A stretch of 64,000 bases of DNA, from the NCBI RefSeq assembly GCF_964204645.1, contig NC_134032.1, forward strand, positions 8,172,275-8,236,274, read 5' to 3'. A program made the position numbers and the translations under genes. Source of the stretch: Tubulanus polymorphus. Its lineage: Eukaryota > Animalia > Nemertea. Below, piece by piece: positions 4,874-24,843 of this stretch. The notes beneath the pieces are model-generated. The model saw only the letters and a program-made list of their open reading frames with translations, made no database searches and was not told where the DNA came from. How positions within the stretch are numbered: position 1 is the first letter of the stretch; every line of letters begins with the position of its first letter.

Positions 4874-5588
4874 TCAAATATCTCGTCTCTGATAAATGAA
4901 CCAAATTTTAATAGGCCATCGATGGATCATTTTAACTAATATCTCCTTACATATTTTCGACTATTTTAAACATTTACAATATAGCTGCAAAGTAGCGATA
5001 CGGCTGTTATACGGATTACTTAATATTGGATTATTCAGAGTGTAATTCATATTCTCTGTTAATCCACTAAAAGGAGCTGGGTTGCATAATTTATCAAACC
5101 ATGTTACCATTTCTTCGTGATGTCATTTTTGTTTCCTGAAATTGTGCCGTTTTACATTCTTACAGCTCTTGCAGCGTTGTCTCTATTTCCCAGATCTACA
5201 AGCATTTGTTTCACTGGGGTACCTTCAATTTATATCGGCACATTTATACCTTAACAGAAAATAACAGTTGTTGTCTATTTAGACTTATACAAAGCATTCG
5301 ACCCGGTAAGTCATATCATTTAGTTATACAAATTAAATCTCTATGGGATCAGGGGATTTACTCCCTTTTTCGTTTTGTTGTTGTAATTACGTTCTGCATA
5401 TCATTTTGTTATTGTTCTTTTCCTCTGATTTCATCAGATATATTATTTTATGTTAATTTTGTCATAAAAGTTGTGATACTTTGACAATAAAGTTTAATCG
5501 TAAAATTATTCGAAAAACCACTTTGACTTAGCGCCCGTCATTTGTCTAAAGTAGCTATTTAAGAGCGCAATTTCCTAACTTGAATAAT

Positions 5589-5988
5589 AGTAATAGGGGT
5601 AATGGGCTTTCATACCAAAGGTCGAAAGGTCGAGCCCGAGAAATTTTCCAAAATGTTAAAATAACAACAATTTCTACTTGAATTAGTCGCGTACACTCCT
5701 AATTCAAGTAGAAATTATTATTATTTTAACATTTGGAAAATTTATCAACCTCAACCTTTCGACCTTTGATATGAAAGCCCATTACCCCTATTACTCTTAA
5801 AATATTCATATATATATGAATAACATTTAAATCATTGAACTTCTAAAATCAATTTTAATAAAAAAATATAGTATTAAAATGGAAGCAAATAAGTACTACT
5901 GCCCAACATGTAATATCGATATAGATAAATCCCAAAAAGCAAGACACAATAAAACTAAAACACATTTAGAGAATAAATTGAAACTAGA
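5589..5988 (+). repeat. Left TIR of the Polinton (first 207 bp self-complementary)
   Basis: Reverse complement of 22901-23299; I could see only a 1-bp indel in an A-run and one substitution. Confidence 0.95.
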
Positions 5989-6130
5989 ATATTTACAGTT
6001 ATATTCAGAACAGTTAACAAAGGGAAAGAAATTTATTGAATTATGGAATAATGATCCAAATAATGAACAATACGTTGAGGAATTTGATATCAAGGAATCG
6101 AAACAACTTATCAAAAGCAGCGAGGAATGA
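5879..6130 (+). CDS. Chimeric 83-aa ORF: pPolB N-terminal Zn finger (inside the TIR) fused to an HNH-gene-like C-terminus
   Basis: The first 38 aa match the pPolB N-terminus (one difference). LQLYSEQLTKGKKFIELWN resembles IQLYLDQLDKAKTFVELWN of the neighbouring HNH gene. Confidence 0.55.
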   Translation: MEANKYYCPTCNIDIDKSQKARHNKTKTHLENKLKLEYLQLYSEQLTKGKKFIELWNNDPNNEQYVEEFDIKESKQLIKSSEE

Positions 6131-6209
6131 AAAAGGATGACGTTGGTCGAAGAAATGGAAGAGGATTCTAAAATTATTAACCAATTTAGTAAAAAAATAC
6201 GTATAATAA

Positions 6210-6861
6210 ATGGAACCAGAACCACCACAAATTATCAATATTACAAATAACACTGGTGTTATAAACATATACTACAAGAAGTGTTCTAAATGTGAATTAG
6301 ATAAATCATTAACAGAATTTAGTAAGCGTAAGATTAGCAAAGATGGTTTTCAATATTGCTGTAAAACTTGTTTTAAACTATATACCAAACAATACCGAGA
6401 AGATAATATAGAACATTATAATTATTATATGGCAGAATATATGAGAGAAAGATATCAAACAGATCTTGATTTTAGATTAAAACAATGCTTAAGATCTAGA
6501 TTAACACAATTATTCAATAAAGAAACACATTCAGAAACATTATCTAATTTATTGGGTTGTTCAGATGAATTTCTCAAATCATGGATAATATATCAATTCG
6601 ATGATAAAATGAATATAGATAATTATGGTGAATACTTTCATATTGATCATGTGTTGCCGATTTCTAAATTTAACATTAATGATGAATACAATAAAAAAAC
6701 TTATTTGGGGTTGGAGAAATTTAAGGCCTCTTGAAAAGAAAGAAAACATAATTAAATCTAATAAACTAGATATACAGTTATATTTAGATCAACTGGATAA
6801 AGCAAAGACATTTGTTGAATTATGGAATTCAACACATAATGAAAAATATGTTGAAGCTTAA
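6210..6861 (+). pseudogene. HNH endonuclease with N-terminal CxxC Zn module, frameshifted
   Basis: CSKC...CKTC, then HIDHVLP...NLRPL..KEN..KSNK split across ORFs 6210-6734 and 6625-6861; extra A in the A7 run at ~6693-6699. Confidence 0.8.
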
Positions 6862-7255
6862 GTGCTTAGAAAACCGGTTACTCTCGATCTATGTCAAACC
6901 GCCTATATTTAATTGTATTAGGTTGTTTACAAAAACATCTGTGCCGTATTTCATATTCAGTTGAATGGGGCGCACCTCATTTGAATATTGATCGAACGTG
7001 CTATTTCAGTTGAAAAGGATTAATCAATTATATTACAAAAGAAGGAACATCTGTTGCACCAGACGGTGTTAAGCTAGTGAATAACTACCAGTTATAAACG
7101 CGCAGCACATAAGCATAGGAACGTATTGGATATTCTCTCTCAAAACACAGTTTACAGTTCTAAATCTAAATGTAAGTAAATATATTATGAAGTAGGGAAA
7201 CCTTTAAACATATTTAAGTACAGTAATTCATTTTCACGATATCTTTTAGATTAAA

Positions 7256-7722
7256 ATGGAACACAAAGATCAACCAGAAATTCCAAGTCAACCAACGGAT
7301 GAGGAACCAGAAACGATAGATAGTGAAACTCAGGAATCAATAGAAATGGAGGATGAAACTCTCGTAATTGACGAACAAACTTCACAAAATTATAAGAACA
7401 TTTGGACTATCATCAAGAAATGGTGAAAACTCTGAGTGATGTAATACATAATAAACAATTACCGCGCGAACTACAATTACCAAAATTACCAGCAACGCGA
7501 CTTAAATTGCTGTTGGGACTCAAATAATCGAAAACTAAGAAAATGAGTGGAGATATCAGTGCCGGTTTTGAAAGAAAACTGAGAAGAGTAGGTAGATTAA
7601 TAAAATATGAAAAATTCAAAATATTAGGATTAGCATTTAGTGAAGTAGTAAGACATTTACCAAAAATTGAAGAAATGATTGGAAACAATCCAGTAATTAA
7701 AGAATTCTGGACAAAATTATAA
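7256..7722 (+). pseudogene. Disrupted Polinton accessory gene (acidic N-terminus), function unknown
   Basis: MEHKDQPEIPSQ... reads to a stop at ~7424, continues in another frame with one internal stop to ...IKEFWTKL*. Confidence 0.5.
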
Positions 7723-7808
7723 ATTATAACACTGAGGTCTTTATAATATAGATATCAAAAAATGTTGTATATATCTGTTTTAATATTGTATTGTTTACTG
7801 TTAACTAA

Positions 7809-8081
7809 GTATTGCGCAATAACCGGTCCGATTGAACCGCTTTTCTATTGTTCTCTATTGTTCTATTATTGATCGTTGTTAATGGCGGCGGTTGTTCTGT
7901 ATTGATAGTTTACTGTTAACTAGGTATTGCGCAATAACCGGTCCTATTGGACCGCATTTCTATTGTTCTCCATTGTTCTATTATTGATCGTTGTTAGAAT
8001 AAAAATATAACTGTGTATTGCGCAATAACCGGTCCTATTGGACCGCATTTCTATTGTTCTCCATTGTTCTATTATTGATCG
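7809..8081. repeat. Three ~67-bp direct repeats containing the palindrome TATTGCGCAATA
   Basis: Copies start at 7809, 7924 and 8015. Confidence 0.85.
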
Positions 8082-8493
8082 CTAAAATTTACATAATAAA
8101 TATATGTGTTTATGAAATAGTAATTCCACCAGTCGTTTCTTTGAATTTATTTTCAGTTTTAGGATTTATTATCGAGAATCCGAAATGACTTATCTGGACA
8201 GTTATAGTTACCGCTCCTATAGATAGACAATAGTAGTGAGATAATCTAAATCCTAATTTAAATAAAATATAATAAAAAAACAATAACTTCAACTATCTAG
8301 TCAATTCTATTATATTTTCAATATTTTCTTTTGGTAATTCTAATTGACATTAGATTGAATAGATTTTGAATAGATTTGAATAGAAATTCTTTAACTTTAA
8401 CTAACCTAGTCAATTTAGTATTAACCTAAAGAGATACTAGTATCATTTGAAGAATACTTATAATACTATTCTTATTAAATTTCTCTAATATAA

Positions 8494-9102
8494 ATGTCAA
8501 AGAAATCTAATAAGAATAGTATTGATATTGAAAAAACATTAGATGATTTAGGTATTAGTGATAATAAAGATACAGTTGTTTCTAATTCTATTCAAGTTAA
8601 TAACAATATAGATTATGAATACTACTTATATTGTAAGCATCATCTTGAATTATTAATTGCTGGCGGGAAATCTAAGGATTTCTTGGGAAAAATAATAACT
8701 TTTCAAGAATTAGATGCTATGAAACCCGATAAAGTGATAAAATATTTTAAGATTTATGAAGAAGCTCGATTATCTAAAATAAATGATTCTATTTCAGATG
8801 GTATTGTTAAATGTTATTCAAAATTATGTAACCAGTTAATACCAATTGATGATGAAAATAAATTATATAGTGATTTGAAAAATGACTACTTAGTTATGAC
8901 TGAATTACAAAAATGGGTTGGTTATGCTTCATTTCAATTAGGATCGGTTATGACATTGATTTCTACTGGAGTTATAACATTTTCGAACATCAAACCTATG
9001 GAATATAAATCAGGTAAGAACGAAACAGATGACGCTGTACTACAACCAAACATCGAAACAGAAAATGAATCAGAACAAAAATTAACTAAAATAAATGAGT
9101 GA
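8494..9102 (+). CDS. Polinton hypothetical protein, 202 aa
   Basis: Intact ORF with TAAATG start and a hydrophobic segment near the C-terminus. Confidence 0.8.
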   Translation: MSKKSNKNSIDIEKTLDDLGISDNKDTVVSNSIQVNNNIDYEYYLYCKHHLELLIAGGKSKDFLGKIITFQELDAMKPDKVIKYFKIYEEARLSKINDSISDGIVKCYSKLCNQLIPIDDENKLYSDLKNDYLVMTELQKWVGYASFQLGSVMTLISTGVITFSNIKPMEYKSGKNETDDAVLQPNIETENESEQKLTKINE

Positions 9103-9520
9103 TAGCGTTAAGAAGAAGCCTAGATCCGAGAAACAAATTAAATGGGCAAGAGAATTAGGTAAAAGATCTTCAGAATTAAAAAAAGCTAAGAAAAAGAAAT
9201 TAACTGATATAAATGAATCACAGACTTTATCTGATGGTGCCGTACAGCACCCACACGGTGGTATTGATTCAAATGATAATCCATCTAATTCTTCTAATGC
9301 TGGAAGTAATTATAAATTATATATTACAATTGGATTAGTAACAGTTATTATATTATCCGGCGTAATATATAAATCAAAATTCAAATCTGATGATAAAGAT
9401 GATTCCAATGATGATCGGAAACTTAGTTATCCGTGTACAGACAATAAACCTATTATACCAGAAAATAAGTCAAATCATAAATCAAATGAAAATAAATCTA
9501 AAATATTATTAATGGATTAA
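9095..9520 (+). CDS. Polinton single-pass membrane protein, basic N-terminus, 141 aa
   Basis: TM segment LYITIGLVTVIILSGVIY; TAAATG start overlapping the upstream stop. Confidence 0.75.
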   Translation: MSDSVKKKPRSEKQIKWARELGKRSSELKKAKKKKLTDINESQTLSDGAVQHPHGGIDSNDNPSNSSNAGSNYKLYITIGLVTVIILSGVIYKSKFKSDDKDDSNDDRKLSYPCTDNKPIIPENKSNHKSNENKSKILLMD

Positions 9521-9523
9521 AAT

Positions 9524-10612
9524 ATGATGAAAAAAGAACAATATTTGAGAGATTTATATTACAACCCAGAAAGTGAAGTATCATATTCTAACGTTTCAGA
9601 ATTATGGAATAAAATTAAATCTGATAATAGCAATATAAAATATAGTGAATTAAAATCATGGTTACAAAATCAACCCACATATCAAATTCATAAAAAGATG
9701 GATAAAAAATATTTAACAAGAAAAGTAATGGTTTCATATATTGACCAACAATGGCAAGCTGATTTAATTGACATGAAAAACTTAGAAGAATATAACAAAG
9801 GATATTTTTGGATACTAAATGTTATAGATATATTCAGTAGATACGCATGGAGTATCCCGATTAAAAATAAAACTGGTATAGAAGTTACAAATTCTTTCAA
9901 ATTAATATTTAAAGAAGCTATCCCAGATAAAATACAATTTGATGAAGGTAAGGAATTTTATAACAAACATTTCAAAAAACTATTATCTGATAACGATGTA
10001 GAATATTTTTCAACACATTCAGATAAAAAAGCATCTGTTATAGAAAGATTTAATAAAACATTGAAATCTAGAATGTGGAAATATTTTACTGCTAATGAAA
10101 CATATAAATATATCGATGTGTTAGATGATTTAGTTAAAGGTTATAATAATTCTAAACATAGTTCTATAAATATGAAACCTATACAAGCTAGAAAAGAAGA
10201 AAATTCAGAAATAGTTTGGAATAATTTATATGGTGCGTTTGTTACACACGATTTTGGAGAACCTAAATTTAAAATAGGACAACATGTTAGAATTTCTAAA
10301 TATAGAAAAACATTTTATAAAGGTTATACCCCTAATTTTACTGAAGAAATATTTAAAATTAAAAAGATAATATTAACTAAACCATTTGTTTATAAACTAG
10401 AAGATCTAAAAGATGAAGAAATATTAGGTTATTTTTATGAACAAGAATTATCATTAGTACCAAATCCAGATGAAATAGAATACAAAATAGAAAAGGTATT
10501 GAAAACAAAAACTCTTAAAGGAAAAAAGTATTCTTTGGTGAAATATAAAGGATATGATGATAAATTTAATGAATGGATTTTATCTAGTAAAATTAAAAGA
10601 ATAAATGAATAA
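9524..10612 (+). CDS. int: Retroviral-type (rve) DDE integrase with C-terminal chromodomain
   Basis: WQADLID, QFDEGKEF, VIERFNKTLK (D-D-E); chromodomain YKIEKVLK...LVKYKGYDDKFNEWI. Confidence 0.95.
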   Translation: MMKKEQYLRDLYYNPESEVSYSNVSELWNKIKSDNSNIKYSELKSWLQNQPTYQIHKKMDKKYLTRKVMVSYIDQQWQADLIDMKNLEEYNKGYFWILNVIDIFSRYAWSIPIKNKTGIEVTNSFKLIFKEAIPDKIQFDEGKEFYNKHFKKLLSDNDVEYFSTHSDKKASVIERFNKTLKSRMWKYFTANETYKYIDVLDDLVKGYNNSKHSSINMKPIQARKEENSEIVWNNLYGAFVTHDFGEPKFKIGQHVRISKYRKTFYKGYTPNFTEEIFKIKKIILTKPFVYKLEDLKDEEILGYFYEQELSLVPNPDEIEYKIEKVLKTKTLKGKKYSLVKYKGYDDKFNEWILSSKIKRINE

Positions 10613-11219
10613 AGATTTATTTATATTTGAACCACATAATATGTTAGTTACTGGAGTTACAAATTGTGGTAAAACACATTTCATATTAGATTTGTTAGAA
10701 ACTATTTATAAGAATCATTTTGATAATATAATATTATTCTGTCCTACTTATGAAATGAATGAAACGTATAATAGAGATATAGTTTTTAAAGATAAAAAGT
10801 TTATTATATTAAATTCTAAAACAGTAAAAGATAATTTAGATAATTGTATAAAAATTGCATTAGATATTTATAAAGGATCTAATACATTATTTATTATCGA
10901 TGATTGCGCAAATTTACATGATTCTAAAATTAGAGAAAGTGAGTTATGTTATTTAGCTTTCTCTGGTAGACATTTTGATATAACAACTTGGGTTTTAAAT
11001 CAGAAATATAATTCAATTGTTAAAGACTTTAGAGAGAATATAAGATTTCTAGTTTTATTTTATAATAAAGATAAAAAATCTATGCAACAATCATTGGAAG
11101 AAAATCAAATTATACCTACTGAATTACATGATGAATATATGAATAAATTAAAAAATAATAAAGGTTCAAAATTATTACTGAGATTACAATTTCCTTATGA
11201 ATATAAATTTATAAAATAA
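10605..11219 (+). CDS. A32/FtsK-like DNA packaging ATPase
   Basis: Walker A GVTNCGKT, Walker B FIIDD, SGRH motif. Confidence 0.93.
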   Translation: MNKDLFIFEPHNMLVTGVTNCGKTHFILDLLETIYKNHFDNIILFCPTYEMNETYNRDIVFKDKKFIILNSKTVKDNLDNCIKIALDIYKGSNTLFIIDDCANLHDSKIRESELCYLAFSGRHFDITTWVLNQKYNSIVKDFRENIRFLVLFYNKDKKSMQQSLEENQIIPTELHDEYMNKLKNNKGSKLLLRLQFPYEYKFIK

Positions 11220-11241
11220 CTATTTGTATACCTATGTATTA

Positions 11242-11337
11242 GATACCCTTATACCTGATACCCCTAATACCTGATACCCCTAATACCTGATACCCTAATA
11301 CCTGATACCCTAATACCTGATACCCTATTAGATACCT
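11242..11337. repeat. Minisatellite (GATACCC[C]TAATACCT)n between convergent Polinton genes
   Basis: About six units of 15-16 bp. Confidence 0.85.
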
Positions 11338-11395
11338 TAAATAATTTAAACCCCTTTTTTTATTTACTATTATTTTATACAATTTTCAACCTTTA

Positions 11396-12328
11396 TTATT
11401 CGAGTTTTAGATAATCACTTTCTGAATCACTTTCACTATCAGACGGCTCTAACAACATATTTAAATGCTCTACCGAATCTACATCACCATCTTTATAATT
11501 TTTTTTCACCTTTTTCACCTTTTTCACCTTTTTTACCAAATCATCAATAGTTGTTTCATTTTTAAACTTATTCATCCAATCAAATTTATCATTATTTTCT
11601 ACTTTATGTTTTATAGAATCTTTATTATCAATATGTTTAACTGTAACTATATCATCATGTGGGTCATGTGGGTGTATGACATCATTTTCATTATCATCTT
11701 TATTAGTGTTTGCTCCTAATATTTCATTTACAGTGTTTGATCCTAATATTTCATTAGCATCGGTTAAATCTAATTCATCTCTATTAGGTGTTGCTAATAA
11801 AAAATCTTTATATAATTCTTTACCATTTACTTTTTGATTTGAAACAAACTTCGTAACATATCTAAATGGGTGTTCTATAAATTCTCTTAAACCAACACGT
11901 TCTATAACATTAGTAATATGTACCTTTGTATTCATATGTTTATTCCAATTTGATGGAGCGTTTGAAAATTCACCATTACAATAACCACAATAATTTCTAT
12001 TTTCACTAACATCTAATATTATTGCATTATTATATGTAGAAGGTATTACGTTATTAGATGTAGAAGGTATTACAGATGTAGTAGTAGGTATTACAGATGT
12101 AGTAGGTATTACAGATGTAGTAGTAGGTATTACAGATGTAGTAGTAGGTATTACATTATTATTAACAACACCACTTTTATTATTATCGATTTCTATCAGT
12201 TTAGTTTTATAATTTTTAAAAATAGGATTAAATATCAAAGCTATATTACAAGGTATTACATAATATAAACCATCATTATTTTCATGTGTATCGATGTATG
12301 GAATATGTTTATATACTTTACCTTCCAT
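11396..12328 (-). CDS. Polinton protein with Zn finger and TTSVIP repeats, 310 aa
   Basis: CGYC...HMNTKVH; tandem VIPTT(T)S repeats; TAAATG start. Confidence 0.75.
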   Translation of the reverse strand: MEGKVYKHIPYIDTHENNDGLYYVIPCNIALIFNPIFKNYKTKLIEIDNNKSGVVNNNVIPTTTSVIPTTTSVIPTTSVIPTTTSVIPSTSNNVIPSTYNNAIILDVSENRNYCGYCNGEFSNAPSNWNKHMNTKVHITNVIERVGLREFIEHPFRYVTKFVSNQKVNGKELYKDFLLATPNRDELDLTDANEILGSNTVNEILGANTNKDDNENDVIHPHDPHDDIVTVKHIDNKDSIKHKVENNDKFDWMNKFKNETTIDDLVKKVKKVKKVKKNYKDGDVDSVEHLNMLLEPSDSESDSESDYLKLE

Positions 12329-12360
12329 TTATTATATATATTTTTATTAAAGTTAAAATT

Positions 12361-13608
12361 TTAATACATAACACTATCTAATTGTGAATTTATAATATTT
12401 AATTGTGCGTCAGATATAATATAAATATGCATTTTAAAATTTTTGATTCCCTTTTTCTTTGTCATGAATAATTGTATTCCATCTTTAGTGTTTTGTAGTT
12501 TTTTTCCAGAACCATGTAATAAGTTATCTTCAGTTGTTCTAAAATCTAACCATAATGCATATTTATTACCGGTATAATAATCAATTTGATTAATGTTACA
12601 ATTTTCAAATGATTTTATTTTTTCATTCATAAAATGTTTTTTAATTTCTACCCATTGATCTATCATTCTCATTCCTTGACAAAATATTTTATTTGCTATT
12701 CCTTCGATAGTTATTTCTACTTTTGTTATTTCAGGATTATAATAATTGTCAACATTTATTGCACCATTAGTATACGTTCCAATGGTAAAAAATATTAATA
12801 TACCTTTAATAGATCTTCTAGGGAAGTTAATATTCTCATTAATTATTTCATCATTTGCATTAATAGTTACAGTTTTAAATTTATCAATATAATCATATAA
12901 TAATGAAAACCCTTGATTATATTTAGTTTGAATTATACTTGAAATATTTTCATCAGTTACTGTATCATATTCTAAACATATATTCGATAATTTATAACTC
13001 ATATCTTTAACAACGCTAGATAATACAATTTCATTTACAGGAGCAAATGTTATCTCAAATATAATATCTTCTTGAATTGCGTATTTATATAAAGGTGCAT
13101 TATTATTTATCAATTCAAAGTCTAATGGAATTTTATATTTGCTTCCATATATACTTTTTATCAATTTATCTACATCATTTGTTAATATTGCGCTATTAGC
13201 TTCTGATCTTAATTTATTTTGGTTTTCTGATTGGATGCCTTGAAATATCATATTATTTCTATTTTCTTTAGTTAACCATAAATCTTTATAATGCATAAAT
13301 AAATTATAATCATCTAATGAGAAAACTGTTTCCGGACCAATCTTTATTGTTAACTTTTTAATCAAATATCTTCCAACATTATCAACAACATAATTATTAT
13401 TATTACCGATTACTTTTATATCAGCTGATAAATAAATACTATTTGGAACATAAAAAGTATTTTGTGTTAATCTCGGAATTCTAACGTATAAAGTTTCATC
13501 GGGATTAATATTTGAAGGGTTATGAGTAATTATATGATGTGATCTTTCTGCTTTAATAGCATTAGATATTCTAGAAATCTTCGAAGGACTTATATAACTC
13601 CCACTCAT
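12361..13608 (-). CDS. Major capsid protein (double jelly-roll, hexon-like), 415 aa
   Basis: Size and beta-strand-rich pattern; motifs NPSNI...LYVRIP, LSNICLEYD, PRRSIKGIL, YALWLDFR as I recall them from animal Polinton MCPs; genomic context. Confidence 0.8.
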   Translation of the reverse strand: MSGSYISPSKISRISNAIKAERSHHIITHNPSNINPDETLYVRIPRLTQNTFYVPNSIYLSADIKVIGNNNNYVVDNVGRYLIKKLTIKIGPETVFSLDDYNLFMHYKDLWLTKENRNNMIFQGIQSENQNKLRSEANSAILTNDVDKLIKSIYGSKYKIPLDFELINNNAPLYKYAIQEDIIFEITFAPVNEIVLSSVVKDMSYKLSNICLEYDTVTDENISSIIQTKYNQGFSLLYDYIDKFKTVTINANDEIINENINFPRRSIKGILIFFTIGTYTNGAINVDNYYNPEITKVEITIEGIANKIFCQGMRMIDQWVEIKKHFMNEKIKSFENCNINQIDYYTGNKYALWLDFRTTEDNLLHGSGKKLQNTKDGIQLFMTKKKGIKNFKMHIYIISDAQLNIINSQLDSVMY

Positions 13609-13628
13609 TTATTTAACAAAAAAAATTA
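13606..13628 (-). promoter_or_regulatory. Poxvirus-late-like promoter of the MCP gene (representative of the T-run class)
   Basis: TAATTTTTTTT-GTTAAA-TAAATG; same layout before 14932, 16337, 16788, 17230, 17476 and 17818. Confidence 0.6.
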
Positions 13629-13650
13629 ATTATTTATTTTTTATCATGGT

Positions 13651-14932
13651 TTACTTGATATTTTTTGATATCATATTTACTAACCCAAAAATAATAGCAC
13701 TTACAACTGTAATTAAAAATAAAATAATATGTTCAGCAGCAAAGTTAATAATGTTTCCTGCAGATTTCAATATAAAACCAACAATTGAAGCAATAACTCC
13801 TGGCAATGCTGCAGCAGATTTTTTAGATAGTTCCCATAAATATTTTGCTAATTTTTTTAAACCATCTTTAACTTTATCTTATGTTATATTCTAAATCATC
13901 TTTTTCTTTTTCTAAATATGCATTTCATTTTTTAAATTCAATTTCTTCAATAACTTTATTATCTCTATCTAATTTTAGTTGTTCTATTTCTTTATTTTTA
14001 TCAGTTCTATCTTTTTCTAAAAATCTAATTTTAATATCTCTTTTACTTTTTTCATGCGCAATTTTATCAGCTGATTCTTGCATACCTTTAATTTCTCTAC
14101 GTGTTTGTTCAGGAAATGATTCTAATTCATCAGCTGATAAATCAAGTAATCCTTTTTCTAGTAAAGATTGTATTCGATTTATTCCAGCACTATTCATCTC
14201 TTCGTCAAATGAATCTCTTAATCTATCAATTTGTTTTTCTAATACTAATTGTAATTGACTTGAATCATTATCAATTTGTTGAGTGTCTCTTCTCGATGTT
14301 TCGGGTGTTGAAGATCTTAATTTATCTCTATTCTCTTCCATTTCCGTTTCTGGATTATTATCGATTATTTCAAATAATTCATTAATTCTTTGTTTAAATT
14401 CTTTTCTATTATTATCTCTTTCTTCTTGTGTAACATCATTTATTTCATTTCTATTACTTATTCTCTTAATTCTATCTGGTTCTAACTTAAGCAAAGTTGA
14501 TTCTGCTAATATTATATTTTGAGTTTTATAAGAGATGTTAATATAATAATCATCTTTCAATTTATAATAATATTCACCATCTAAATATTTTAATTCTTTT
14601 ACTAAAAGTCTGGCACCTCTGTAATTTATATTATATCCAGATTTTTCAAATACATCTTGAAACTTATATATAAATTTATTATTTTCTATATCTTCTTTTG
14701 ATAAACCTGGAATTTCATTTTCAGGATTTATTCTCGATCTAGTTCTTCTATCAAATTCATCTGTTGATGGGGCTTTAGAACCACTATCTGCTAAATTAGA
14801 ATTATATGCTGATTCATCATCATTATCAATATTAGTTTCATTAAAATCAGGTTGTGGTTCATCATCAATATATCCTTCATTATTATTTCCCATTTCTCCC
14901 ATTTCATAATCTTCTCCACCTTCTACATCCAT
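13651..14932 (-). pseudogene. Polinton acidic/coiled-coil protein with hydrophobic C-terminus, disrupted
   Basis: The 335-aa ORF stops at 13925. The tail DKVKDGLKKLAKYLW...AAALPGVIASIVGFIL...KNIK* continues in another frame to 13651. Confidence 0.7.
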
Positions 14933-14948
14933 TTACATAATAAAAAAA

Positions 14949-16337
14949 TTAAAATTTAAAATATAATATTCCTCCGATTACAATTCCTATACAAGTTATA
15001 GCTAATTTAGTATTTTCATGTGATTTATTATCATCATTTAGTTTAATTATATCATGTTGAATTTTATCAGTTTTTATATCTTCTGATGTATTGTAATCTT
15101 TTATTTTGGAATCATTATTTAATTTAATATTCTTAGTTTTAGTTTCTGTTGATTGAATATGTTTTTTATTTTTTTCACCTTCCATTAATTTTGGGGCAGT
15201 GATAATCTTTTTATTTATATCATTTAACCCAAATGAATTATTTATTGTTGCAGTTTTAATTAGATTATTATAACCAATTATATTTCCCATCTTTAATACT
15301 AAATCATTAGAAATAATTAATAGATTAGGGCCTATACAATAATTAAGTCTTACATGAGATTTATCTAAATAATTTTGATATCTTATAATGTTTTCTGGAA
15401 TCGATCTATTTTTATCATTATGAATTGAATCTTCAAATAAAACTTTAAATTGTTTTTGTGTATCAAATGATGTATTCAAATTTCCAATTATCGGTGATCT
15501 TGTTTCAACTTGCGCACCTAAAATACAAATCAAATAAGTTCTAATAGATTGATTTATTCTTTCTATACCTGATTTAGTAAAACCTTCACTATTTTCTAAA
15601 ATAAAATAAACCCAACCATTATTGTTTTCTTGTTTTAAATGATCATAAAATTTCGGTAATTTATTGAAATTTAATGTTTCTAAATCCTTTGTTTCTATTT
15701 TACCATAACCTAATTTATTATTATAGATATTATAAAGGCTATTAGATGGTATGGGAAGTGCACAATATTCTGCAATCTTTTTAGGGCAAGGAAGTGATCT
15801 TATTGTTCCAATTTTTGTTCTAAAATCAGAATTATTTATATCTATATTAAATTCATTGCAAATCTTATAAAACTTAGATAAATTAATATTATTATCTAAT
15901 TCTTTGAAATACCTAGATCCTGGTAAAGCGCACTCTAATTCATTTAATATTATTCTGATTTGAAAGTATGTATGAAATCTAAATAAACTTTGAATTAATT
16001 TATATTTAGAATTATTCAAATGATCATTCCAACTAATTCCACATCCTGTTGTTGCACAATAAACAGCAAAATTTAATTTATTCTGCCAATACTTCATATT
16101 AGATTTTAATAACCATTGTTTTTCATCTTTCAATTTTTTAAAATTAATTAAATATACATGAAATATATTTTCCATCTTTGCATTAAAATTATTAGTTTCA
16201 GTAACATAAATTTCTAAATTAGTTAATGAATCTAAAACTTCATTTCTATATGTAATATCTTTATTAAAATCTATTGCTGGAATATTATATTTAATTGATT
16301 TATTATATCGGAAAGCTTTTGGAAAACAATCTACCAT
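14949..16337 (-). CDS. Polinton hypothetical protein with C-terminal TM anchor, 462 aa
   Basis: Intact ORF; NFAVYCATTGCGIS and FRFHTYFQIR blocks; C-terminal LAITCIGIVIGGILYF. Confidence 0.8.
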   Translation of the reverse strand: MVDCFPKAFRYNKSIKYNIPAIDFNKDITYRNEVLDSLTNLEIYVTETNNFNAKMENIFHVYLINFKKLKDEKQWLLKSNMKYWQNKLNFAVYCATTGCGISWNDHLNNSKYKLIQSLFRFHTYFQIRIILNELECALPGSRYFKELDNNINLSKFYKICNEFNIDINNSDFRTKIGTIRSLPCPKKIAEYCALPIPSNSLYNIYNNKLGYGKIETKDLETLNFNKLPKFYDHLKQENNNGWVYFILENSEGFTKSGIERINQSIRTYLICILGAQVETRSPIIGNLNTSFDTQKQFKVLFEDSIHNDKNRSIPENIIRYQNYLDKSHVRLNYCIGPNLLIISNDLVLKMGNIIGYNNLIKTATINNSFGLNDINKKIITAPKLMEGEKNKKHIQSTETKTKNIKLNNDSKIKDYNTSEDIKTDKIQHDIIKLNDDNKSHENTKLAITCIGIVIGGILYFKF

Positions 16338-16353
16338 TTATATAATTAAAAAA

Positions 16354-16788
16354 TTAATAATTTATTAATTCTTTTAATAATTTATCTTGTTCTTCAACTG
16401 TTATATGACCATTTAAACTTATTATATAATCTAGTGTGTTCTTTAATTTATTAATTTCTTTTATATTAGTTTTAATTTTTTCTTTATTACTTTTTATATT
16501 TAATTTTGAACTTATACCAGTTAAAACACTTGAACTTAATCCTAATACACCAATTGATATAGCTAATGGTGTTAATGGGCTGAATATTGCTAGAAATGTT
16601 ATTACAGAACTAATTGTAACCGAACCACTTATAATCAAATAATATATAATTTTACTTTTTAGATATTTTTTCTTTTTTATCTTTAAGTCACTTTCAAATT
16701 CTAATATTTGTTTTTCTAAATATATTTTTAATTTAGTTTTATTTATATCATGAGGAATAATATCAATTCTATCAACTTTATCTTCCAT
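16354..16788 (-). CDS. Polinton two-TM membrane protein, 144 aa
   Basis: Central hydrophobic hairpin; TAAATG start. Confidence 0.75.
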   Translation of the reverse strand: MEDKVDRIDIIPHDINKTKLKIYLEKQILEFESDLKIKKKKYLKSKIIYYLIISGSVTISSVITFLAIFSPLTPLAISIGVLGLSSSVLTGISSKLNIKSNKEKIKTNIKEINKLKNTLDYIISLNGHITVEEQDKLLKELINY

Positions 16789-16807
16789 TTATTTAGAATA
16801 AAAAATA

Positions 16808-17230
16808 CTAATTAGTAAACTTATAAGCAACAAATATAACAATAACTGTTCCACCTAAAATCCATATTATTTCATATTTCTGTTGTTCTTTACTTGGGGT
16901 ATAATAATCTGATAATTTAGGTTTGTATAGATGTAATTTTTCTTTATTTGTTACTGCGTTATATAAACTCATTGCATCATCAACTGATTGAAAATCTCTA
17001 TGTGAAATCTTCTGATCATATAATTCTTTGTTAATATAATCCATATAGTTTTGCCTCTTTTCTCTATATTCTTCTGCAGCTTTATTGTATTTCTCTAACG
17101 CTAAGTTATGTCTTCTTTGTTCTCCTAATGAACTATTTTTATCAATATGTTTAAATAAATAACCACCACCAGTAAATGCTAAAGCGTTAACGATTGCCGA
17201 TCCTATAATAGTTATAATTGCAGAAGCCAT
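16808..17230 (-). CDS. Polinton small protein with hydrophobic ends and EQRRHN motif, 140 aa
   Basis: Intact ORF; TAAATG start. Confidence 0.78.
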   Translation of the reverse strand: MASAIITIIGSAIVNALAFTGGGYLFKHIDKNSSLGEQRRHNLALEKYNKAAEEYREKRQNYMDYINKELYDQKISHRDFQSVDDAMSLYNAVTNKEKLHLYKPKLSDYYTPSKEQQKYEIIWILGGTVIVIFVAYKFTN

Positions 17231-17254
17231 TTATTTAACAAAAAAATTATGTAT

Positions 17255-17476
17255 TTATATGGGAGGAATATATTTTTGTTTTTCCAAATAATCAATAGTT
17301 AAATTAGATAAAGTAACTGCTAATGTTAACTTTAAAATATCATTGATATCAAATCTATCAACATTAACACTTCCCATTTTGAATACTTTTTTTAATACCA
17401 TTGAATAACCAACCGTTCCAACTGATAGTAATGGGCCATTGTATAATCCAGTTATTATCCACTTATTATCACTCAT
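17255..17476 (-). CDS. Polinton small hydrophobic protein, 73 aa
   Basis: Tightly packed ORF with T-run/TAAATG start. Confidence 0.68.
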   Translation of the reverse strand: MSDNKWIITGLYNGPLLSVGTVGYSMVLKKVFKMGSVNVDRFDINDILKLTLAVTLSNLTIDYLEKQKYIPPI

Positions 17477-17818
17477 TTATTTATCAAAAAAATTACTATC
17501 ATCAAAATATTTAGTTAACTTATTTATGATTAATTCAACATTTATTTCATTACTAGTTTTATGATTATCATATATTTTGGTTAATATGTTTTTAATATCT
17601 TCAATAATTCCATCTTCATTTAATTCATAATATTCTAAAGGTGATTTAATTAAATCAATTACTTTTTCTATATTATACTTTTCTTTATCAATCATTGACG
17701 CATTGTTAAATGATTTACTTTTTATATCAGTAATTACGTCATTTAGTTTAATTCTCATTTCTTTACCATGTTTAAAATCAAACCCAAAACATATACTCGG
17801 TCCAACAGTTATATTCAT
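17477..17818 (-). CDS. Polinton hypothetical protein, 113 aa
   Basis: Tightly packed ORF with T-run/TAAATG start. Confidence 0.68.
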   Translation of the reverse strand: MNITVGPSICFGFDFKHGKEMRIKLNDVITDIKSKSFNNASMIDKEKYNIEKVIDLIKSPLEYYELNEDGIIEDIKNILTKIYDNHKTSNEINVELIINKLTKYFDDSNFFDK

Positions 17819-17835
17819 TTATATAGTGAAAAAAA

Positions 17836-18594
17836 TTACTCTTTACATCTTATAACTAATTCATAAATAACAGGGAAATTATTTAAATCAATTAAGTATC
17901 CATTATGATTTCTAATTTCTAATCTAAAATTATTAAAACTAGGAATGCATGGTTTGAAATCACATTCTGTTAAATTATAATTTATTTGCGTTCCAAATTC
18001 TTTAACATTTTTTAATGGTAAAATATTTAATATACTAGAATTACATGTTGTATCTTTAGTTGCTTCAAATGTTTTTGTTGGGTCAATTAAATTGCAATAA
18101 ATATAAAAATGTGTAAAAGGTATTATATTTGAAATACCTTCTACGTTTACTGTAACAACATCTGGTTCAATTCCTAGCAATTTAGCTATAGGTTTTTTTA
18201 CCATAAATGCATGTTGACTTTCATCAAATACCTTTATTTTAATTCTATTTGAGCTATCACTTTTTATAAATCTTATTAAAAATTTATCATCTTTTCTAAT
18301 TTTCAACCGTGCTCTACGATTAATTTCTTGAGATAATGTTTCTAAATTATATAATCCTGGTCTTAGAAATAGATGAAACCATTTATTTACATTTCTAATA
18401 TGAATTAAAAAAGTATTATGTTCAATAGTTTTATTCGATATATTATAAAAAGAATTACATAAACTTATATTTACTAATTTTAAATCTACACAATTCTTGA
18501 ATTCTCTATCTAATTGTACTAATAAATTATGACATTTATAATTTGTAAGTTTTCTAGAATCTACAAATATTCTGTATTCTTTTAATTCTACCAT
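17836..18594 (-). CDS. Minor capsid protein (penton, single jelly-roll), 252 aa
   Basis: PGLYN, FYIYCNLI, SSILNILP and FRLEIRNHNGYLIDLN pattern typical of Polinton pentons. Confidence 0.75.
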   Translation of the reverse strand: MVELKEYRIFVDSRKLTNYKCHNLLVQLDREFKNCVDLKLVNISLCNSFYNISNKTIEHNTFLIHIRNVNKWFHLFLRPGLYNLETLSQEINRRARLKIRKDDKFLIRFIKSDSSNRIKIKVFDESQHAFMVKKPIAKLLGIEPDVVTVNVEGISNIIPFTHFYIYCNLIDPTKTFEATKDTTCNSSILNILPLKNVKEFGTQINYNLTECDFKPCIPSFNNFRLEIRNHNGYLIDLNNFPVIYELVIRCKE

Positions 18595-18611
18595 TTATTT
18601 TACATATTTTC

Positions 18612-18953
18612 TTATTCGAAATCAATATCGTGATGCCCTTTTTCATTCTTACCTTTGTATACGAAATAGAAATCTCCAGAACATAATTCTTCTAGATCTT
18701 CACTTGATAATCTATGAAATCTATCTGGTAAATATGTTCTGAATTTATATGTATTTCCTTTTAATCCTTCATATTCTAAATGAATTACTAATTTATCTCC
18801 ATATTTATTAGTAATTGTTTCAATGTTAGTAATTAAATATTTCTTGTGAATTGTTAATTCTGTTAACTTTTTGAATTTATAATCTACAGATTTAACGCTT
18901 GAAGTATCTTTAATTCTATCTAAGAATTCACTGTGTACTTGTTTACTCTCCAT
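18612..18953 (-). CDS. Small beta-rich protein next to pPolB (possible OB-fold SSB), 113 aa
   Basis: FKKLTEL...TNKYG...YLPDRF...VYKG; function is inference. Confidence 0.65.
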   Translation of the reverse strand: MESKQVHSEFLDRIKDTSSVKSVDYKFKKLTELTIHKKYLITNIETITNKYGDKLVIHLEYEGLKGNTYKFRTYLPDRFHRLSSEDLEELCSGDFYFVYKGKNEKGHHDIDFE

Positions 18954-18970
18954 TTATTATACAAATTTTT
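18951..18970 (-). promoter_or_regulatory. A-run promoter class (AAAA + 12 nt + ATG), representative copy
   Basis: AAAAA-TTTGTATAA-TAAATG; identical spacing before 6210, 12328, 18594 and pPolB. Confidence 0.55.
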
Positions 18971-18981
18971 ATTGAAATTGA

Positions 18982-21900
18982 TTAACACGCTAGAATCCTT
19001 TTCATAATCTCATTTTCTTTTGTTTCTTCTCTTTTGAATTTTATATATTCATCTAAATTGCAACCATAGGCGACTGTGTGGATTCCATCATCTAAAATAT
19101 ATCTTTTATCATCAAATGGGTTTAGACTTATCTTCTCTATCTCTTCAATATACATTTCATGATCTTCAGATCTTAAACATTTCATCTTATGTTTTCTAAC
19201 TTCTTCATTAAATATACAATTGATGCAATCTTTAAAATGAATATTCTTTTCAACAACGCTTTTGGTAATTCCTTTTAACTTTTTAGCTTCATGAGTTTTG
19301 GTTTTATATGAATACATTTTAGATCTAATACCAATGAACTCTATCATTTCTTCACCACCTAATTCATCCTTAAACTTCCCAGGAACTTTTTTATTATCAT
19401 TGCTAAACAATTCATGATCTTTAGGATAGTTACTAAAATCAAAATGATGTTTTAATGTTTTTAAATCATCTGTTATGTTATCAGTTTTTATCTTTAATAT
19501 GTAACTGTCAGTATCAAAGTATAGAATTTCTATGTGTTTTTCTCCAAAATGGGGTTGTAATATGTTATAGTAAAATTTATACATTAATAACTTTGATAAT
19601 TCTAAAACCGATGCACCAACATAAATAGGTTTATTGAACTTCATAGAAGTTCTCCTCATTTTAACTGCTGCTAAATTTTCATCAAATATTCTGTTACCTA
19701 TAAACTTAGGATATGATTGTAAATGCCTTATCCTTTTACCATTACTAACTTACTCAATATCATTTCTATTTCTTATGTTTTCACAAGTCTTACCATAGAA
19801 TGCATTATTCATTAGTTTGAAGAAATCTTTCTCGAAATCAGTTTTAGCTTCAGTTCTCTGTGTAGTATTAAAATCTATATATTTTTCTAACCATTTAGAT
19901 TGACTGAATGAAATATATCTATGTACTTTTTTTAGAATCATTCCTTGATTCAAATAAAACTTCAACATTCTATAATGCACAACGTAATTATATTTATCTT
20001 CTTGAGTTACCATTAACTTTTCAGTATGAATATGATTATCGGGTTTAATTCTTTTTTGATAATTTGATAATTCTTCATGTTTAACAGTTTTATGTTCGGG
20101 ACAATATGCTAGATTTCTAGATTTGAATTTAATATTTTCAGGATATTCTAAATCTACAACGAAGAAGTAACCAATATCTGAATCATCTGCAATATCTAGA
20201 ATTCTTTTCTTCCAATCAAATTTATCAATTTGTAAAACTTCAGTTATTTCAAACATCCCATAAGGTTGTGGTTCCATCATTGCCCAACCATACAAATTAT
20301 TTGCATCTATATATAATAACTTATATCCAGGGTTATCATTTACATTGAAATATCTATCACCTAATACACCTGAAACTCCTCCTCTTATAGATTTTTCAAA
20401 TAATAGTAATTGATCTATATTTGTTAACAAATCCATTTTTATATCTGTAAATTTTAATCCACAATCCCATGTTAATCCTGGTGATGAATAACAATGACAA
20501 GGATCAATTTTGAAATATTTTAGGTTTACATCTCTAAACCTTTCGAATATATCGGTTAATAATAATACATCTGATTTTAAATATAAATCTACTAATTGTC
20601 CATGATTTTTAATTTCAAAATGATTCCAAATATTCAATGTTCTATTATAAACTTCATCTTTAACATATTCATTTTTTAATTCATCATAAAATTGTTCTTT
20701 TAATAATTCAGTTATATTAAAATCATTATGATTTTTATAGAAAGAATATGGAATTGCTCCTTTATATCTCATTAATTGAAAATCATCATTATTTGGGTAA
20801 TATTCTTTTAATATCTTTAATTCATAATCAACTAATGATTTTGATAGATTGTCTAATGAACTACTTAAAAATCTATATGAATCTATAAATCTTAGACAAC
20901 CAAATTGGAATGATATATAATTCTCAGATGTTTTAGCTAACATTCTAAATTTATAAGTTGGTATTTTATCTTTTGATCTATTTGAATTTAATATTTCTAT
21001 TTCATTATTGATTTCTTCTATTTTATGACATAACTGTTTGATGAATAAATGTGCATCATATCCTGATAGGTTATGAAATATAACTGGTATAAAGTTAATT
21101 TTCTTAGCTTGTAAGTTACAATTCTCATGTGCAGCGCCTCTAAACTTTCCATTCAAATGATCATGATCTCTTACTTTTTTATCTTTATAATTAAATATCT
21201 TTTCACAATAATAACATTTATCTGCAAACGCAAATTCTTCTTTATCTTCTTCTGTCATTATAATTTCTATATTTGTATTCAATAATTTACTAAATCTTAT
21301 TTCATATTCAATTAATAAGTCACAAAAATGATTGATAACATTTTCATTTCTATAATTATAATATTCACTTTCGATTAGTTCTGGATAATTAGATTTAATA
21401 TATAACCCGAAAGCTGCAGCTGATTGATGAATCTTTTTAATTGTATTTGTTATTGGTGGTTCATCTGAATAATCACTTTCATTAGAATTTAATTTCTTTC
21501 TTTTATAATATATATCTTTTCTATCTTTATCTGTTAATTCTTTATTTAATGATTCAAAATCTCCATATATTACAAATGGTACTTTATTTTTGTAATCATA
21601 TTTTTTGAATTCTAATATTTTATCCTTTTCATTTGGTAAAACTAATTTACAATAATCATGATTATCACATAGTTGTTTATGATTTAATAATGTATTTTCA
21701 TTACTAAATTTATGTAAACATTTTCTACATAGATATATTTTATGGTGATCATTTTCTGATTTAAAAAATAAATCGATTTGTTTAATCCACATGTAATGAT
21801 TCTCATAATATAGTATATCTATAACATCATTTGAATCATAATCTTTTGATAGGTATAAAGGTTCTAATGTATAATGTTTAATATTATTTCCTTTTGTATT

Positions 21901-23010
21901 TGGTAATTTGATTAAATCAAATACATTTATCTTTATATTATTATATCTTTCTATTTTTGGAATATTTTTAATTCTAACAGGATACTTATCTATCTTATAA
22001 TTATTTTCAAATGGTTTATAATGAGTTAATCTAAAACTATGTGTAATATCTTCTGTTGGATGTAAACAACTTATTATAGCCCATAGAAAACATTTATTAT
22101 CAAAATTTTGTATATTTATTACACCATTAGTTTTAAATGGTAGTTTAATATAACTTGTTCCATTTATACTATCATCTTTATAATATGATAAATTATTTTC
22201 ATCAATTGGTTTTGATTTAGTTAACTTATTATATTTTGTGTTATAAACATGTAAAGTTATAAATATTATCTCATCAAATATTAAACCAGATCCTTCAAAA
22301 TATTTCTCTTCTATTTTAGTTTTTACTTCATTATAACATTTATCTAATTTATCATCTATATGTTGTTTAGATATAATATGTTGTGAATGAGAATTTATAT
22401 TATATATTGGTTTATCTTCAGATTTTATAAACTTTACTTTAGAAGATATACTTATTTTAGGATATTCTACGTTTGTAATTATTTTTATTATTTCTTTCAT
22501 ATTTTCTAAATGTTTTTTATTTTCTTCTAATGTTTTACCTTTATGAAATTTAAACTCGATAGCTGCTGGACCAATATCACTTTTAAATGCTTCGGTTATC
22601 TCTATATCTTTTTTATTATCTAATGAATTAATATAATTTCTTACATCTTCCATATATGGTCTTTTATTGTTTAATTTATTTTTTATTCTTTTAATTGTCT
22701 TCTGTTTCTTATCGTTATCATTATCAAAATAATCTTCACCTAAAATATCATTATTCTTATTTCTAATATGACTTATAGATTTTAAATGTTCTTTATAATA
22801 TCTTTTATCACTGAATGATTGATTACATGTATCACATTTGTATGTTTCTTTTTCATCCTTTAATTCTTCTAATTTATTTTCTAATATATCATCTTTATAC
22901 TCTAGTTTCAATTTATTCTCTAAATGTGTTATAGTTTTATTGTGTCTTGCTTTTTGGGATTTATCTATATCGATATTACATGTTGGGCAGTAGTACTTAT
23001 TTGCTTCCAT
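18982..23010 (-). pseudogene. polB: Protein-primed family B DNA polymerase (pPolB) with Zn fingers and endonuclease-VII-like insert; one nonsense codon
   Basis: ExoI YGDFES, ExoII FHNLSGYD, DANNLYG, KLMNNAFYGK, YFDTDS; RDHDH...AHENCN. ORFs 19750-23010 and 18982-19659 are in the same frame, separated only by TAA at 19750-19752. Confidence 0.95.
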
Positions 23011-23299
23011 TTTAATACTATATTTTTTATTAAAATTGATTTTAGAAGTTCAATGATTTAAATGTTATTCATATATATATGAATATTTTAAGAGTAATAG
23101 GGGTAATGGGCTTTCATATCAAAGGTCGAAAGGTTGAGGTTGATAAATTTTCCAAATGTTAAAATAATAATAATTTCTACTTGAATTAGGAGTGTACGCG
23201 ACTAATTCAAGTAGAAATTGTTGTTATTTTAACATTTTGGAAAATTTCTCGGGCTCGACCTTTCGACCTTTGGTATGAAAGCCCATTACCCCTATTACT
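22901..23299 (-). repeat. Right TIR of the Polinton
   Basis: Inverted copy of 5589-5988; includes the pPolB upstream region and its first ~37 codons. Confidence 0.95.
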
Positions 23300-24843
23300 A
23301 ATGATAACAGCAATGAACGATTTTACGAAGATCATTTCTCATTTCGACCCAGTCAAAACATTAAGAAGAAACCATTTATGCGATAAGCGACGTGCAGCAA
23401 AGTAATAGATCTTTCGATATTTTGACGAGTGGCATATCTGACTTCTGGAAGATCGAAAGGGGCGCATGGTGACAAAATTGAAAAGGTCACAGCTGAAGTC
23501 ACATTTCACCTTCGACGCTTTCGAGCCTCCACTTGTCAGATCGTTCTGATATGCCCTGTCTGTTATGCTCTAAGATGCTGATCCGAACGAATAAGTAACG
23601 AGAAATGACTTGCATTGACGTTGTGGCACTTGGCTAATATCTTTTGGTCAGAATTTACGCAAGGCAGGAGATGCCCTTTTGAAATCTGTGACAGCGGCCC
23701 TGGCTTGACCCAGCGTGGAAACGCCATGGAACGAGGTACATCGGGCCACCCCATAAGAGAGATCACGCCCCGGGCGAGTGCTCTCTATGCTTCGGCGTTC
23801 AATCTCATGTATATCAAGATCCTGCAACAAACCCTTAGTACCATATATCAGTAATTCATACCGGTTGTAAATGTCCGAGTTTCTCAGACAAAGAGAAAGG
23901 TAGAAAAGATCACAGTGCGGACTAATGTTAGCTGGGCCTGCAGGGAGATGTTTCTGTCCCTCCAAAGATTTTAGAATATCATTCAGAGCAGCAGTTGCTT
24001 GAGCTGTTCTTGCAAGCACTCTCCAGTTTTTATCCCTGCTTTTGCTCACTGATTATCGTTCCAAGGTATTTGACAGATGAGACACAATTTCAGTGACCAT
24101 CAAACTCTGAATAATGTCACAATCTGAATAACGTCAAAATAGGGGCGGCACCCAGTCCGTGAGTGGGTTATATATAACACCTGTTGAAGACATTTCAGAA
24201 TAGATACAACCTACTGGCGCATCCAACGTGCAGATCTTCGGTCGGTTGGATTGATCTGATTCTAGCTATGATGTTTATGAACCGGTCCTTGGGTATGTGA
24301 TTCTTAATCATGGCTTCAACTCCAGCAGGTCAGAAACAGCAGAAACACTCCGCTTAAGGCGTATCCGATGAGGGGAGTAGATAGGCTGTGTGTTTAATGC
24401 TCTGATAGATATTTTCCAACCAGAAGATGTTTTACTATATGTATTGGCACCCTTTACGATAAATTATTGTAAGCCTACATCGCATATTCATGATCGATTC
24501 AATGACATTGTTAATCTAAATAATGATAAACTTTCACAAAAGCTTCGTTGTGTTAGATTTCAGGGAATTGATTTTCTATCCGCTGTTAACAATAAATCTA
24601 ACAAATGAATTGTAGCTTTCGTAAAGACTTTAATGATACATATCAAAGTTAAATTGATATTCCAATACGCGAGAGGACACGGTCAGTTTCGGTATTTTAT
24701 CAGAAAGTCAGTGCGCACTCTCAGACAGTCAGTAGCACACTCTCAGACCTTGGAGTTATCATTGAAGTATTACCCCAAGCTCAGACAGTCACTACACTGT
24801 CGGGCAGGCTATAGCCAACGGACTCACTTGATCTGTATGAATC

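Follow-up and report, generated by a model that had tools for sequence, protein, structure and literature searches.

The 64,000-nt stretch of Tubulanus polymorphus DNA analysed here (contig NC_134032.1, positions 8,172,275 to 8,236,274; called the window below) harbors a complete Polinton, most genes of which start within the hexamer TAAATG. This start motif is confined to one clade of related elements and resembles promoters of large DNA viruses. Two types of start are distinguished by the core upstream of the hexamer, which is a run of T in the T-type and a run of A in the A-type. The features of the element are as follows, with open reading frames abbreviated as ORFs and terminal inverted repeats as TIRs.

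5589-23299, no strand: complete Polinton, 17,711 nt, ends AG...CT
5589-5992, plus: left TIR, 404 nt, 99% identical to the right TIR
6192-6734, plus: HNH/endonuclease VII-like ORF, A-type promoter with TAAATG at 6207-6212, frame-shifted near its 3' end
8476-9102, plus: 202-aa core ORF, family-wide, TAAATG start with mixed core
9077-9520, plus: 141-aa ORF, clade-restricted, A-type TAAATG start overlapping the end of the upstream ORF
9524-10612, plus: RVE integrase with chromodomain (Pfam rve E 7e-9), start TAAAAT-ATG instead of TAAATG
10587-11219, plus: A32-like packaging ATPase (Pox_A32 E 1e-12), A-type TAAATG start
11396-12346, minus: 310-aa Zn-finger ORF, clade-restricted, A-type TAAATG start, A-type in 4/4 orthologues
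12361-13626, minus: double jelly-roll major capsid protein (MCP), 415 aa, T-type TAAATG start
13925-14950, minus: 335-aa family-wide ORF, T-type start
14949-16355, minus: 462-aa family-wide ORF, T-type start
16354-16806, minus: 144-aa ORF, T-type start, SLATT-like similarity weak and below the cut-off
16808-17248, minus: 140-aa family-wide ORF, T-type start
17255-17494, minus: 73-aa family-wide ORF, T-type start, the sole start in the window at which TAA also terminates the preceding gene
17477-17836, minus: 113-aa ORF, T-type start, no relatives among the fetched loci
17836-18612, minus: minor capsid (penton) protein, 252 aa, A-type start
18612-18971, minus: 113-aa ORF, A-type start, T-type in its one orthologue (locus L003)
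18982-23028, minus: protein-primed DNA polymerase B (pPolB; Pfam DNA_pol_B_2 E 8e-16), A-type core, TAAAATG start
22897-23299, minus: right TIR, which shares the terminal hairpin of the left one and holds the pPolB promoter and start

The element is a Polinton (Polintoviricetes), as is evident from pPolB, the RVE integrase, the TIRs with their target-site duplication, the MCP, the penton and the ATPase. TIRs with AG...CT ends and a 6-bp target-site duplication are a hallmark of Polintons, and here the duplication (5583-5588 and 23300-23305) contains one mismatch (5/6 match). With 24% GC the element differs from the flanking DNA of about 39% GC, which is identified as animal host DNA by a rhodopsin-family G-protein-coupled receptor gene and a retrotransposon. 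The AlphaFold2 model of the MCP (pLDDT 87) matched other MCPs in Foldseek with E 6e-20, and virophage MCPs appeared only at ranks 33 and 41 of this fold search; the predicted fold of the penton matched minor capsid proteins (E 3e-11). By taxonomy the element is not a Maveriviricetes virophage, though it may work like a provirophage. An adenovirus-type cysteine protease, which is common in Polintons and not universal, was not matched among the ORFs with Pfam and PHROG; a divergent one is possible among the about ten ORFs without assigned function, the longest of which has 462 aa. The initial annotation had further stated that the element lacks an RNA polymerase, and indeed neither an RNA polymerase nor a known transcription factor was matched among its ORFs with Pfam, PHROG and NCBIfam. 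The pPolB gene of the window copy is broken by one in-frame stop at codon 1087 of 1342.

Fourteen gene starts had been assigned to TAAATG in that annotation, and all 14 were recovered at their positions. The hexamer thus covers 14/16 Polinton genes, compared to 47/677 other ATGs of the element (Fisher p 2e-13). The exceptions are the integrase at 9524 (TAAAAT-ATG) and pPolB at 23010 (TAAAATG), the latter start being repeated at 5879 within the left TIR. Composition-matched shuffles of 17 upstream 40-mers yielded 1.5 occurrences on average and at most 8 in 20,000 shuffles, and the first ATG after a stop codon lay in TAAATG in 17/173 short spurious ORFs; both controls gave p below 1e-11, so that the predicted enrichment over shuffled sequence and internal ATGs was borne out.

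The proposed division into two classes could largely be reproduced. In the T-type, which comprises the MCP and the six genes upstream of it, the spacer is 6-8 nt long as described, whereas the T run measures 6-8 nt and not 5-8 nt; the MCP start (13608) and the start at 17230 share a 19-mer, as had been noted. The A-type pattern is present at 6210, 12328, 18594 and 18953, each time with 12 nt from the A-run to the ATG, pPolB keeps this spacing with its TAAAATG, and further A-type starts lie at 10605 (12 nt) and 9095 (13 nt). The two upstream ORFs that were said to end in INE are those ending at 9102 and 10612. Both classes have in common a core of A and T only, from about -18 to -12, and a T at -12 that is found in 14/14 starts vs 22/47 internal TAAATG; an An-Tm tract occurs in 12/14 starts vs 0/47 internal TAAATG.

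To place the motif among related Polintons, an MCP alignment search was made, which returned 227 metagenome loci, and the best 80 of the 227 were analysed. In the 16 loci with an MCP at least 50% identical, a line that was drawn after the table had been seen and that defines the clade set, TAAATG is found at 59/71 ORF starts vs 10/419 in the other 64 loci, which extends the motif test to relatives with the same outcome. Composition does not account for this difference: AT-rich chance was rejected because clade loci of 29-44% GC carry TAAATG at 27/33 starts and out-of-clade loci of at most 36% GC at 2/66. Out-of-clade orthologues start in TAAATG in 0/59 cases for the MCP, 1/50 for the ATPase and 0/21 for the penton. 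A quick tree of 62 MCPs of at least 300 aa, for which L031 and L075 were too fragmentary, groups the TAAATG-positive loci in one clade (SH-aLRT 99; 14/15 rows positive), the exception being L016 with two ORFs. The TAAATG start motif is a real, clade-wide feature of this Polinton lineage.

Different signals precede the genes of the relatives. TTRAA at -45 to -25 is found in two out-of-clade groups at 32/77 (L020-L062) and 25/90 (L039-L077) starts vs a background of about 3%, and it is at background level in the clade (5/41); the out-of-clade group L018-L068 has TATA-like words near -10 in 15/32 starts. They may represent TATA-like boxes of the host, or promoters for other helpers among the large viruses, for example an asfarvirus-like TATA initiator. 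As the motif occurs in one clade and TTRAA in its relatives, the start signal appears to have been replaced throughout the lineage, the TTRAA-type upstream signal giving way to TAAATG. Scans of viral contigs for the MCP gave no relative, and those of genome contigs gave three out-of-clade fragments with TAAATG at 0/12 starts. MCP homologues that are 54% identical (P0046, P0159-P0166) are filed as Bartonella sp. on short contigs and are probably host-DNA contamination of bacterial assemblies. A deoxynucleoside kinase gene (10340-10981; Pfam dNK E 2e-31), unusual for a Polinton, is present in the clade member L003 and has a TAAATG start of its own.

In the 73 starts of the clade, G and C hardly occur between -18 and -12, position -18 is A in 77% and position -12 is T in 93%; the consensus 3' of this core is AWA-TAAATG, with AWA at -6 to -4, and G follows at +4 in 70%. 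The T at -12 is present at 68/73 clade starts vs 49/138 internal TAAATG of the same loci, and the An-Tm tract at 50/73 vs 5/138. Head-to-head genes carry the motif at 17/20 starts, and in several such pairs the two TAAATG flank a common tract, the whole unit measuring 24-30 nt; the motif is also present at 18 distant tandem starts. The initial annotation had named as a refutation that the motif might act only as a stop codon plus translation-initiation context. TAA is the stop of the upstream frame in only 3/73 clade starts, and this explanation also fails at divergent genes. The fixed core with its T at -12 and the presence of the motif at head-to-head genes exclude stop-start coupling and composition, and with such packing artefacts excluded a short, orientation-flexible promoter is indicated, with an initiator that overlaps the start codon. 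The start profile thus supports a clade-specific, promoter-like element of fixed register, which appears most like poxvirus postreplicative promoters.

For this comparison, published descriptions of poxvirus promoters were used. In late promoters of vaccinia virus, TAAAT followed by G overlaps the start codon, and a T that lies 10 nt upstream is conserved (PMC11980589); intermediate promoters contain TAAA and, farther upstream, an A-rich stretch and then a T, without the conserved T of the late type (PMC11980589; PMC5294985). The distance from core to initiator is about 6 nt in late and about 11 nt in intermediate promoters (PMC12722222). The clade shares with them the TAAAT(G) fused to the start codon, the T-rich core 6-8 nt upstream, the G at +4 and the back-to-back use (PMC11980589, PMC5294985, PMC12722222), but differs in the T at -12 instead of -13, in a stricter A/T-only An-Tm core, in the AWA at -6 to -4 and in its nuclear-integrated carrier. 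In 35 fetched chordopoxvirus loci, which represent one genomic region with few independent genes and no entomopoxviruses, 138/690 starts are TAAATG, 113 of them unique, and the unique ones have T at -13 in 90/113 vs 181/668 internal cases. The upstream profiles of clade and poxviruses correlate with 0.52 (0.51 with a one-base shift), compared to -0.14 for the internal control. When a DNA pattern derived from the back-to-back units of the clade was used, it matched 79 viral stretches, among which salmon gill poxvirus had the highest TAAATG share with 8/13 starts, 2/8 of these matches being forced by the search pattern. An early-promoter pattern, AAAnTGAAA, had no match upstream of the gene starts. 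Judged by the start profile, a poxvirus-like reader would be the best fit.

We therefore consider it rather probable that this is a provirophage-like Polinton which a large, cytoplasmic DNA virus, probably a poxvirus-like one, transcribes with its own RNA polymerase upon co-infection. The RNA polymerase of the helper, together with its late factors, would initiate inside the TAAA of the element promoters, and the products would be nearly leaderless mRNAs with a 5' poly(A) leader made by slippage. The element would depend on late factors of the helper, and the integrated copy would be activated by it, as proposed for mavirus with Cafeteria roenbergensis virus (CroV). Whether the core is rich in T, as at the MCP and its neighbours, or in A, as at the genes of enzymes and minor proteins, would set promoter strength, instead of or besides timing.

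The initial annotation had gone further and proposed a two-step cascade, with A-type starts as intermediate and T-type starts as late promoters, a scheme that would be compatible with the helper reading. The two classes as such are real, since the A-count of the core is bimodal across the clade starts and the class is kept in 11/14 orthologue groups among the six nearest loci. Moreover, A-type genes are mostly enzymes and T-type genes are the MCP and its neighbours, vaccinia intermediate promoters have an A-rich stretch and then a T (PMC11980589), and TAAAAT, used by pPolB and the integrase, is the initiator of the vaccinia intermediate G8R promoter (PMC12722222). However, the T at -12 is present in all A-type starts, although intermediate promoters lack this late feature (PMC11980589), and their A-run stops at a distance of 9 nt from TAAA, between the late spacing of about 6 and the intermediate one of about 11 (PMC12722222), so that class A does not have the A-core at about 11 nt and the missing conserved T of intermediate promoters. 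Ten loci have a T-type and three an A-type MCP start, head-to-head pairs of the relatives have one tract that reads T-type one way and A-type the other, and the ORF searches gave no element-encoded regulator. Because of the shared T and the class flips at divergent promoters the two-step cascade is unproven, and strong versus weak late promoters fit equally. We regard the cascade as doubtful; by their sequence, the classes may be one core set in two ways, perhaps as strong and as weak promoters. Late promoters with T-runs are reportedly stronger than those with A-runs (Davison and Moss, 1989).

How often the element has been inserted could be estimated from reads of a DNA run of a species holding it, which were mapped on 12200-25500. 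The median depth is 515 on the element vs 8 on the adjacent flank (about 65-fold), nearly all element reads are 90-99% alike, and 1,019 reads cross 23299 into heterogeneous flanks, which confirms the element end. The heterogeneous flanks and the depth show that this is a multi-copy family inserted at many sites. In run X7, 83 reads join 12345 to 23033 and skip 10.7 kb, so that the Zn-finger gene comes to lie immediately after the promoter region of the TIR; copies with this junction are likely a deleted derivative.

Reading by a poxvirus-like polymerase gives no account of how a helper-dependent element could build up tens of copies in the germline, nor of how the copy in the nucleus would first come into contact with a polymerase of the cytoplasm; a number of further points weigh against it. 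About 65 germline copies would require either germline co-infection or a helper-independent expression of the integrase and pPolB, and these are exactly the two genes without an exact TAAATG; they could have a second expression route. The T peak of the clade lies at -12 (64/69, with -13 at 52/69) and is thus one base off that of the poxviruses, for which the reference is narrow, and part of the salmon gill poxvirus signal is owed to the pattern itself. Comparisons of clade ORFs with the poxvirus stretches gave no poxvirus-specific link, only generic A32 similarity, and for the Zn-finger orthologue only Atlas matches below 0.9 were obtained. None of the relatives of the L003 kinase is poxvirus-named, and L081, the one viral locus among them, has TAAATG at 1/18 starts. 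A search for poxvirus-like kinases of undescribed viruses gave four matches with E<1e-10, three of them named poxviruses and one close to fish poxviruses, and did not retrieve entomopoxviruses. Searches of viral contigs, with the pattern and for the kinase, identified neither a helper virus nor a helper gene. Finally, the same pattern search found marine giant-virus contigs (with DUF5832, DUF5792 and NMT genes) that have TAAATG at 39/123 unique starts, and their profile correlates with that of the clade with 0.48, near the 0.52 of the poxviruses; the A-block at -18 to -16 and the AWA at -6 to -4 fit this group better. Of the earlier proposal of poxvirus-type promoters and a poxvirus-like helper, the clade-specific, poxvirus-like start profile thus stands, whereas the poxvirus as helper does not follow, given the similar giant-virus profile.

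The helper could accordingly be a large DNA virus other than a poxvirus, or a linear element of the cytoplasm that encodes a polymerase, in the way that pGKL2 serves pGKL1; its late promoters would likewise end in TAAATG. The giant-virus similarities just described speak for this, and TAAAN is the initiator in the linear elements of yeast (PMC6211774). Nevertheless, TAAATG is only one of several endings in the giant-virus group, where T at -12 is found in only 23/41 and where the sequences are near-copies of few genes, and the clade fuses TAAATG to the ATG in 83% of its starts, as poxvirus late genes do. We consider this alternative unlikely.

A lower rank is given to an autonomous element, in which the motif would act as a short Pol II promoter of the host type, or as a translation signal of leaderless mRNAs, served by host or element factors. 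The high copy number implies germline activity, the G at +4 and the AAA before the ATG are like animal Kozak contexts, and AT-rich out-of-clade relatives favour AAA-ATG (24/66). But a Kozak context needs neither a T at -3, nor a fixed core at -18 to -12, nor bidirectional units of 24-30 nt; TATA-like boxes upstream of clade genes are at background (22 vs 22.3 expected), as are independent AATAAA near their stops (20 vs 17.8), and an mRNA started from a TATAAA that abuts the ATG would lack this ATG. It is thus quite improbable that the motif serves such an autonomous expression.

That the motif is a by-product of gene packing is very improbable: 34/73 starts read AATAAATG, many tandem genes are less than 40 nt apart and T-runs follow stop codons, but stop-start coupling was rejected by the upstream stop codons and by the 17 divergent and 18 distant tandem starts with motif, overlapping poly(A) signals by the background level of AATAAA, trans-splicing acceptors by the scarcity of AG in the 11 nt before the ATG (10/73 starts), and AT-rich chance by the GC-richer clade members that keep the motif and the AT-rich outsiders without it.

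A provirophage-like Polinton with a poxvirus-like helper would have several counterparts. Mavirus and the endogenous mavirus-like elements of Cafeteria have promoters that mirror the CroV late motif and are silent until the helper infects (10.1101/068312). They are likewise integrated, with pPolB, RVE integrase, TIRs, target-site duplications and late-type promoters of a large virus, and the silence that was shown for them would be expected here; they differ by a protist host, CroV as helper, their place in the Maveriviricetes and another late motif, compared to an animal host, a Polinton-type MCP and no detected protease. The polinton-like viruses (PLVs) AHEV_PLV1/2, CBEV_PLV1 and Ca_PLV1 from entomopoxvirus occlusion bodies, proposed as poxvirus hyperparasites in animals, are also Polinton-type elements tied to poxviruses in animals, but have about 12 kb, a cysteine protease and no RVE integrase, and the link to the helper was drawn from co-packaging (PMC11296320). 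The text and supplement of that article never mention promoters, and the PLVs are compared here by description. For the PLV PgVV Gezel-14T, helper dependence was read from shared promoter motifs as well, yet there it is the early AAAATTGA motif of the helper and an algal host (10.1101/2022.07.28.501842). The yeast pGKL1/2 are linear pPolB elements with a poxvirus-like TAAAN initiator and poly(A) leaders made by slippage, but they are cytoplasmic, not integrated and without capsid, and pGKL2 encodes its own RNA polymerase (PMC6211774). No report of poxvirus-type promoters in Polintons, Mavericks or adintoviruses was found in the literature searched, which covers few subscription journals and no bioRxiv supplements.

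To our knowledge, protists and algae are the only hosts for which dependence on a helper has been demonstrated. For one lineage and at the level of sequence, the present data address the expression of animal Polintons and the question of virophages among them. A clade-wide poxvirus-type promoter predicts a poxvirus-like virus of the host, and promoter grammar alone could assign helpers to endogenous elements. A far-reaching and speculative version would be that this animal Polinton clade consists of heritable satellites of an undiscovered invertebrate poxvirus lineage, with swapped promoters and a two-stage programme, kept in the germline as an inducible antiviral provirophage. In that case, the start motifs of each lineage in the wider family would record which large virus this lineage exploits.

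The ends of the element have a structure of their own. An imperfect hairpin of 207 nt begins exactly at the element end in each TIR (5589-5795 and 23093-23299) and folds with -87.4 kcal/mol (z -20). It resembles the incompletely paired terminal hairpins of poxviruses or parvoviruses and could, judging by its fold, permit self-priming; a literature search on it yielded nothing specific. The out-of-clade locus L062 also ends in an imperfect palindrome of 206 nt. Within the left TIR begins an 83-aa ORF (5879-6130), which repeats the N-terminal Zn finger of pPolB by way of the TIR and closes with a segment that resembles the last part of the HNH gene. At 7790-8087, in the one long stretch without genes, lie three direct repeats of about 92 nt with short palindromes, a possible origin or enhancer. 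Two short ORFs, 7256-7426 (56 aa) and 7543-7722 (59 aa), have no NCBIfam match, and the first of them starts in TAAAATG, as pPolB does. Outside the Polinton, the window contains a 6-kb GC-rich element at 46778-52833 with inverted terminal repeats and overlapping reverse transcriptase and RNase H frames in a DIRS-like layout, and at 70-3251 pol fragments of a BEL/Pao-like retrotransposon (rve, DUF5641).

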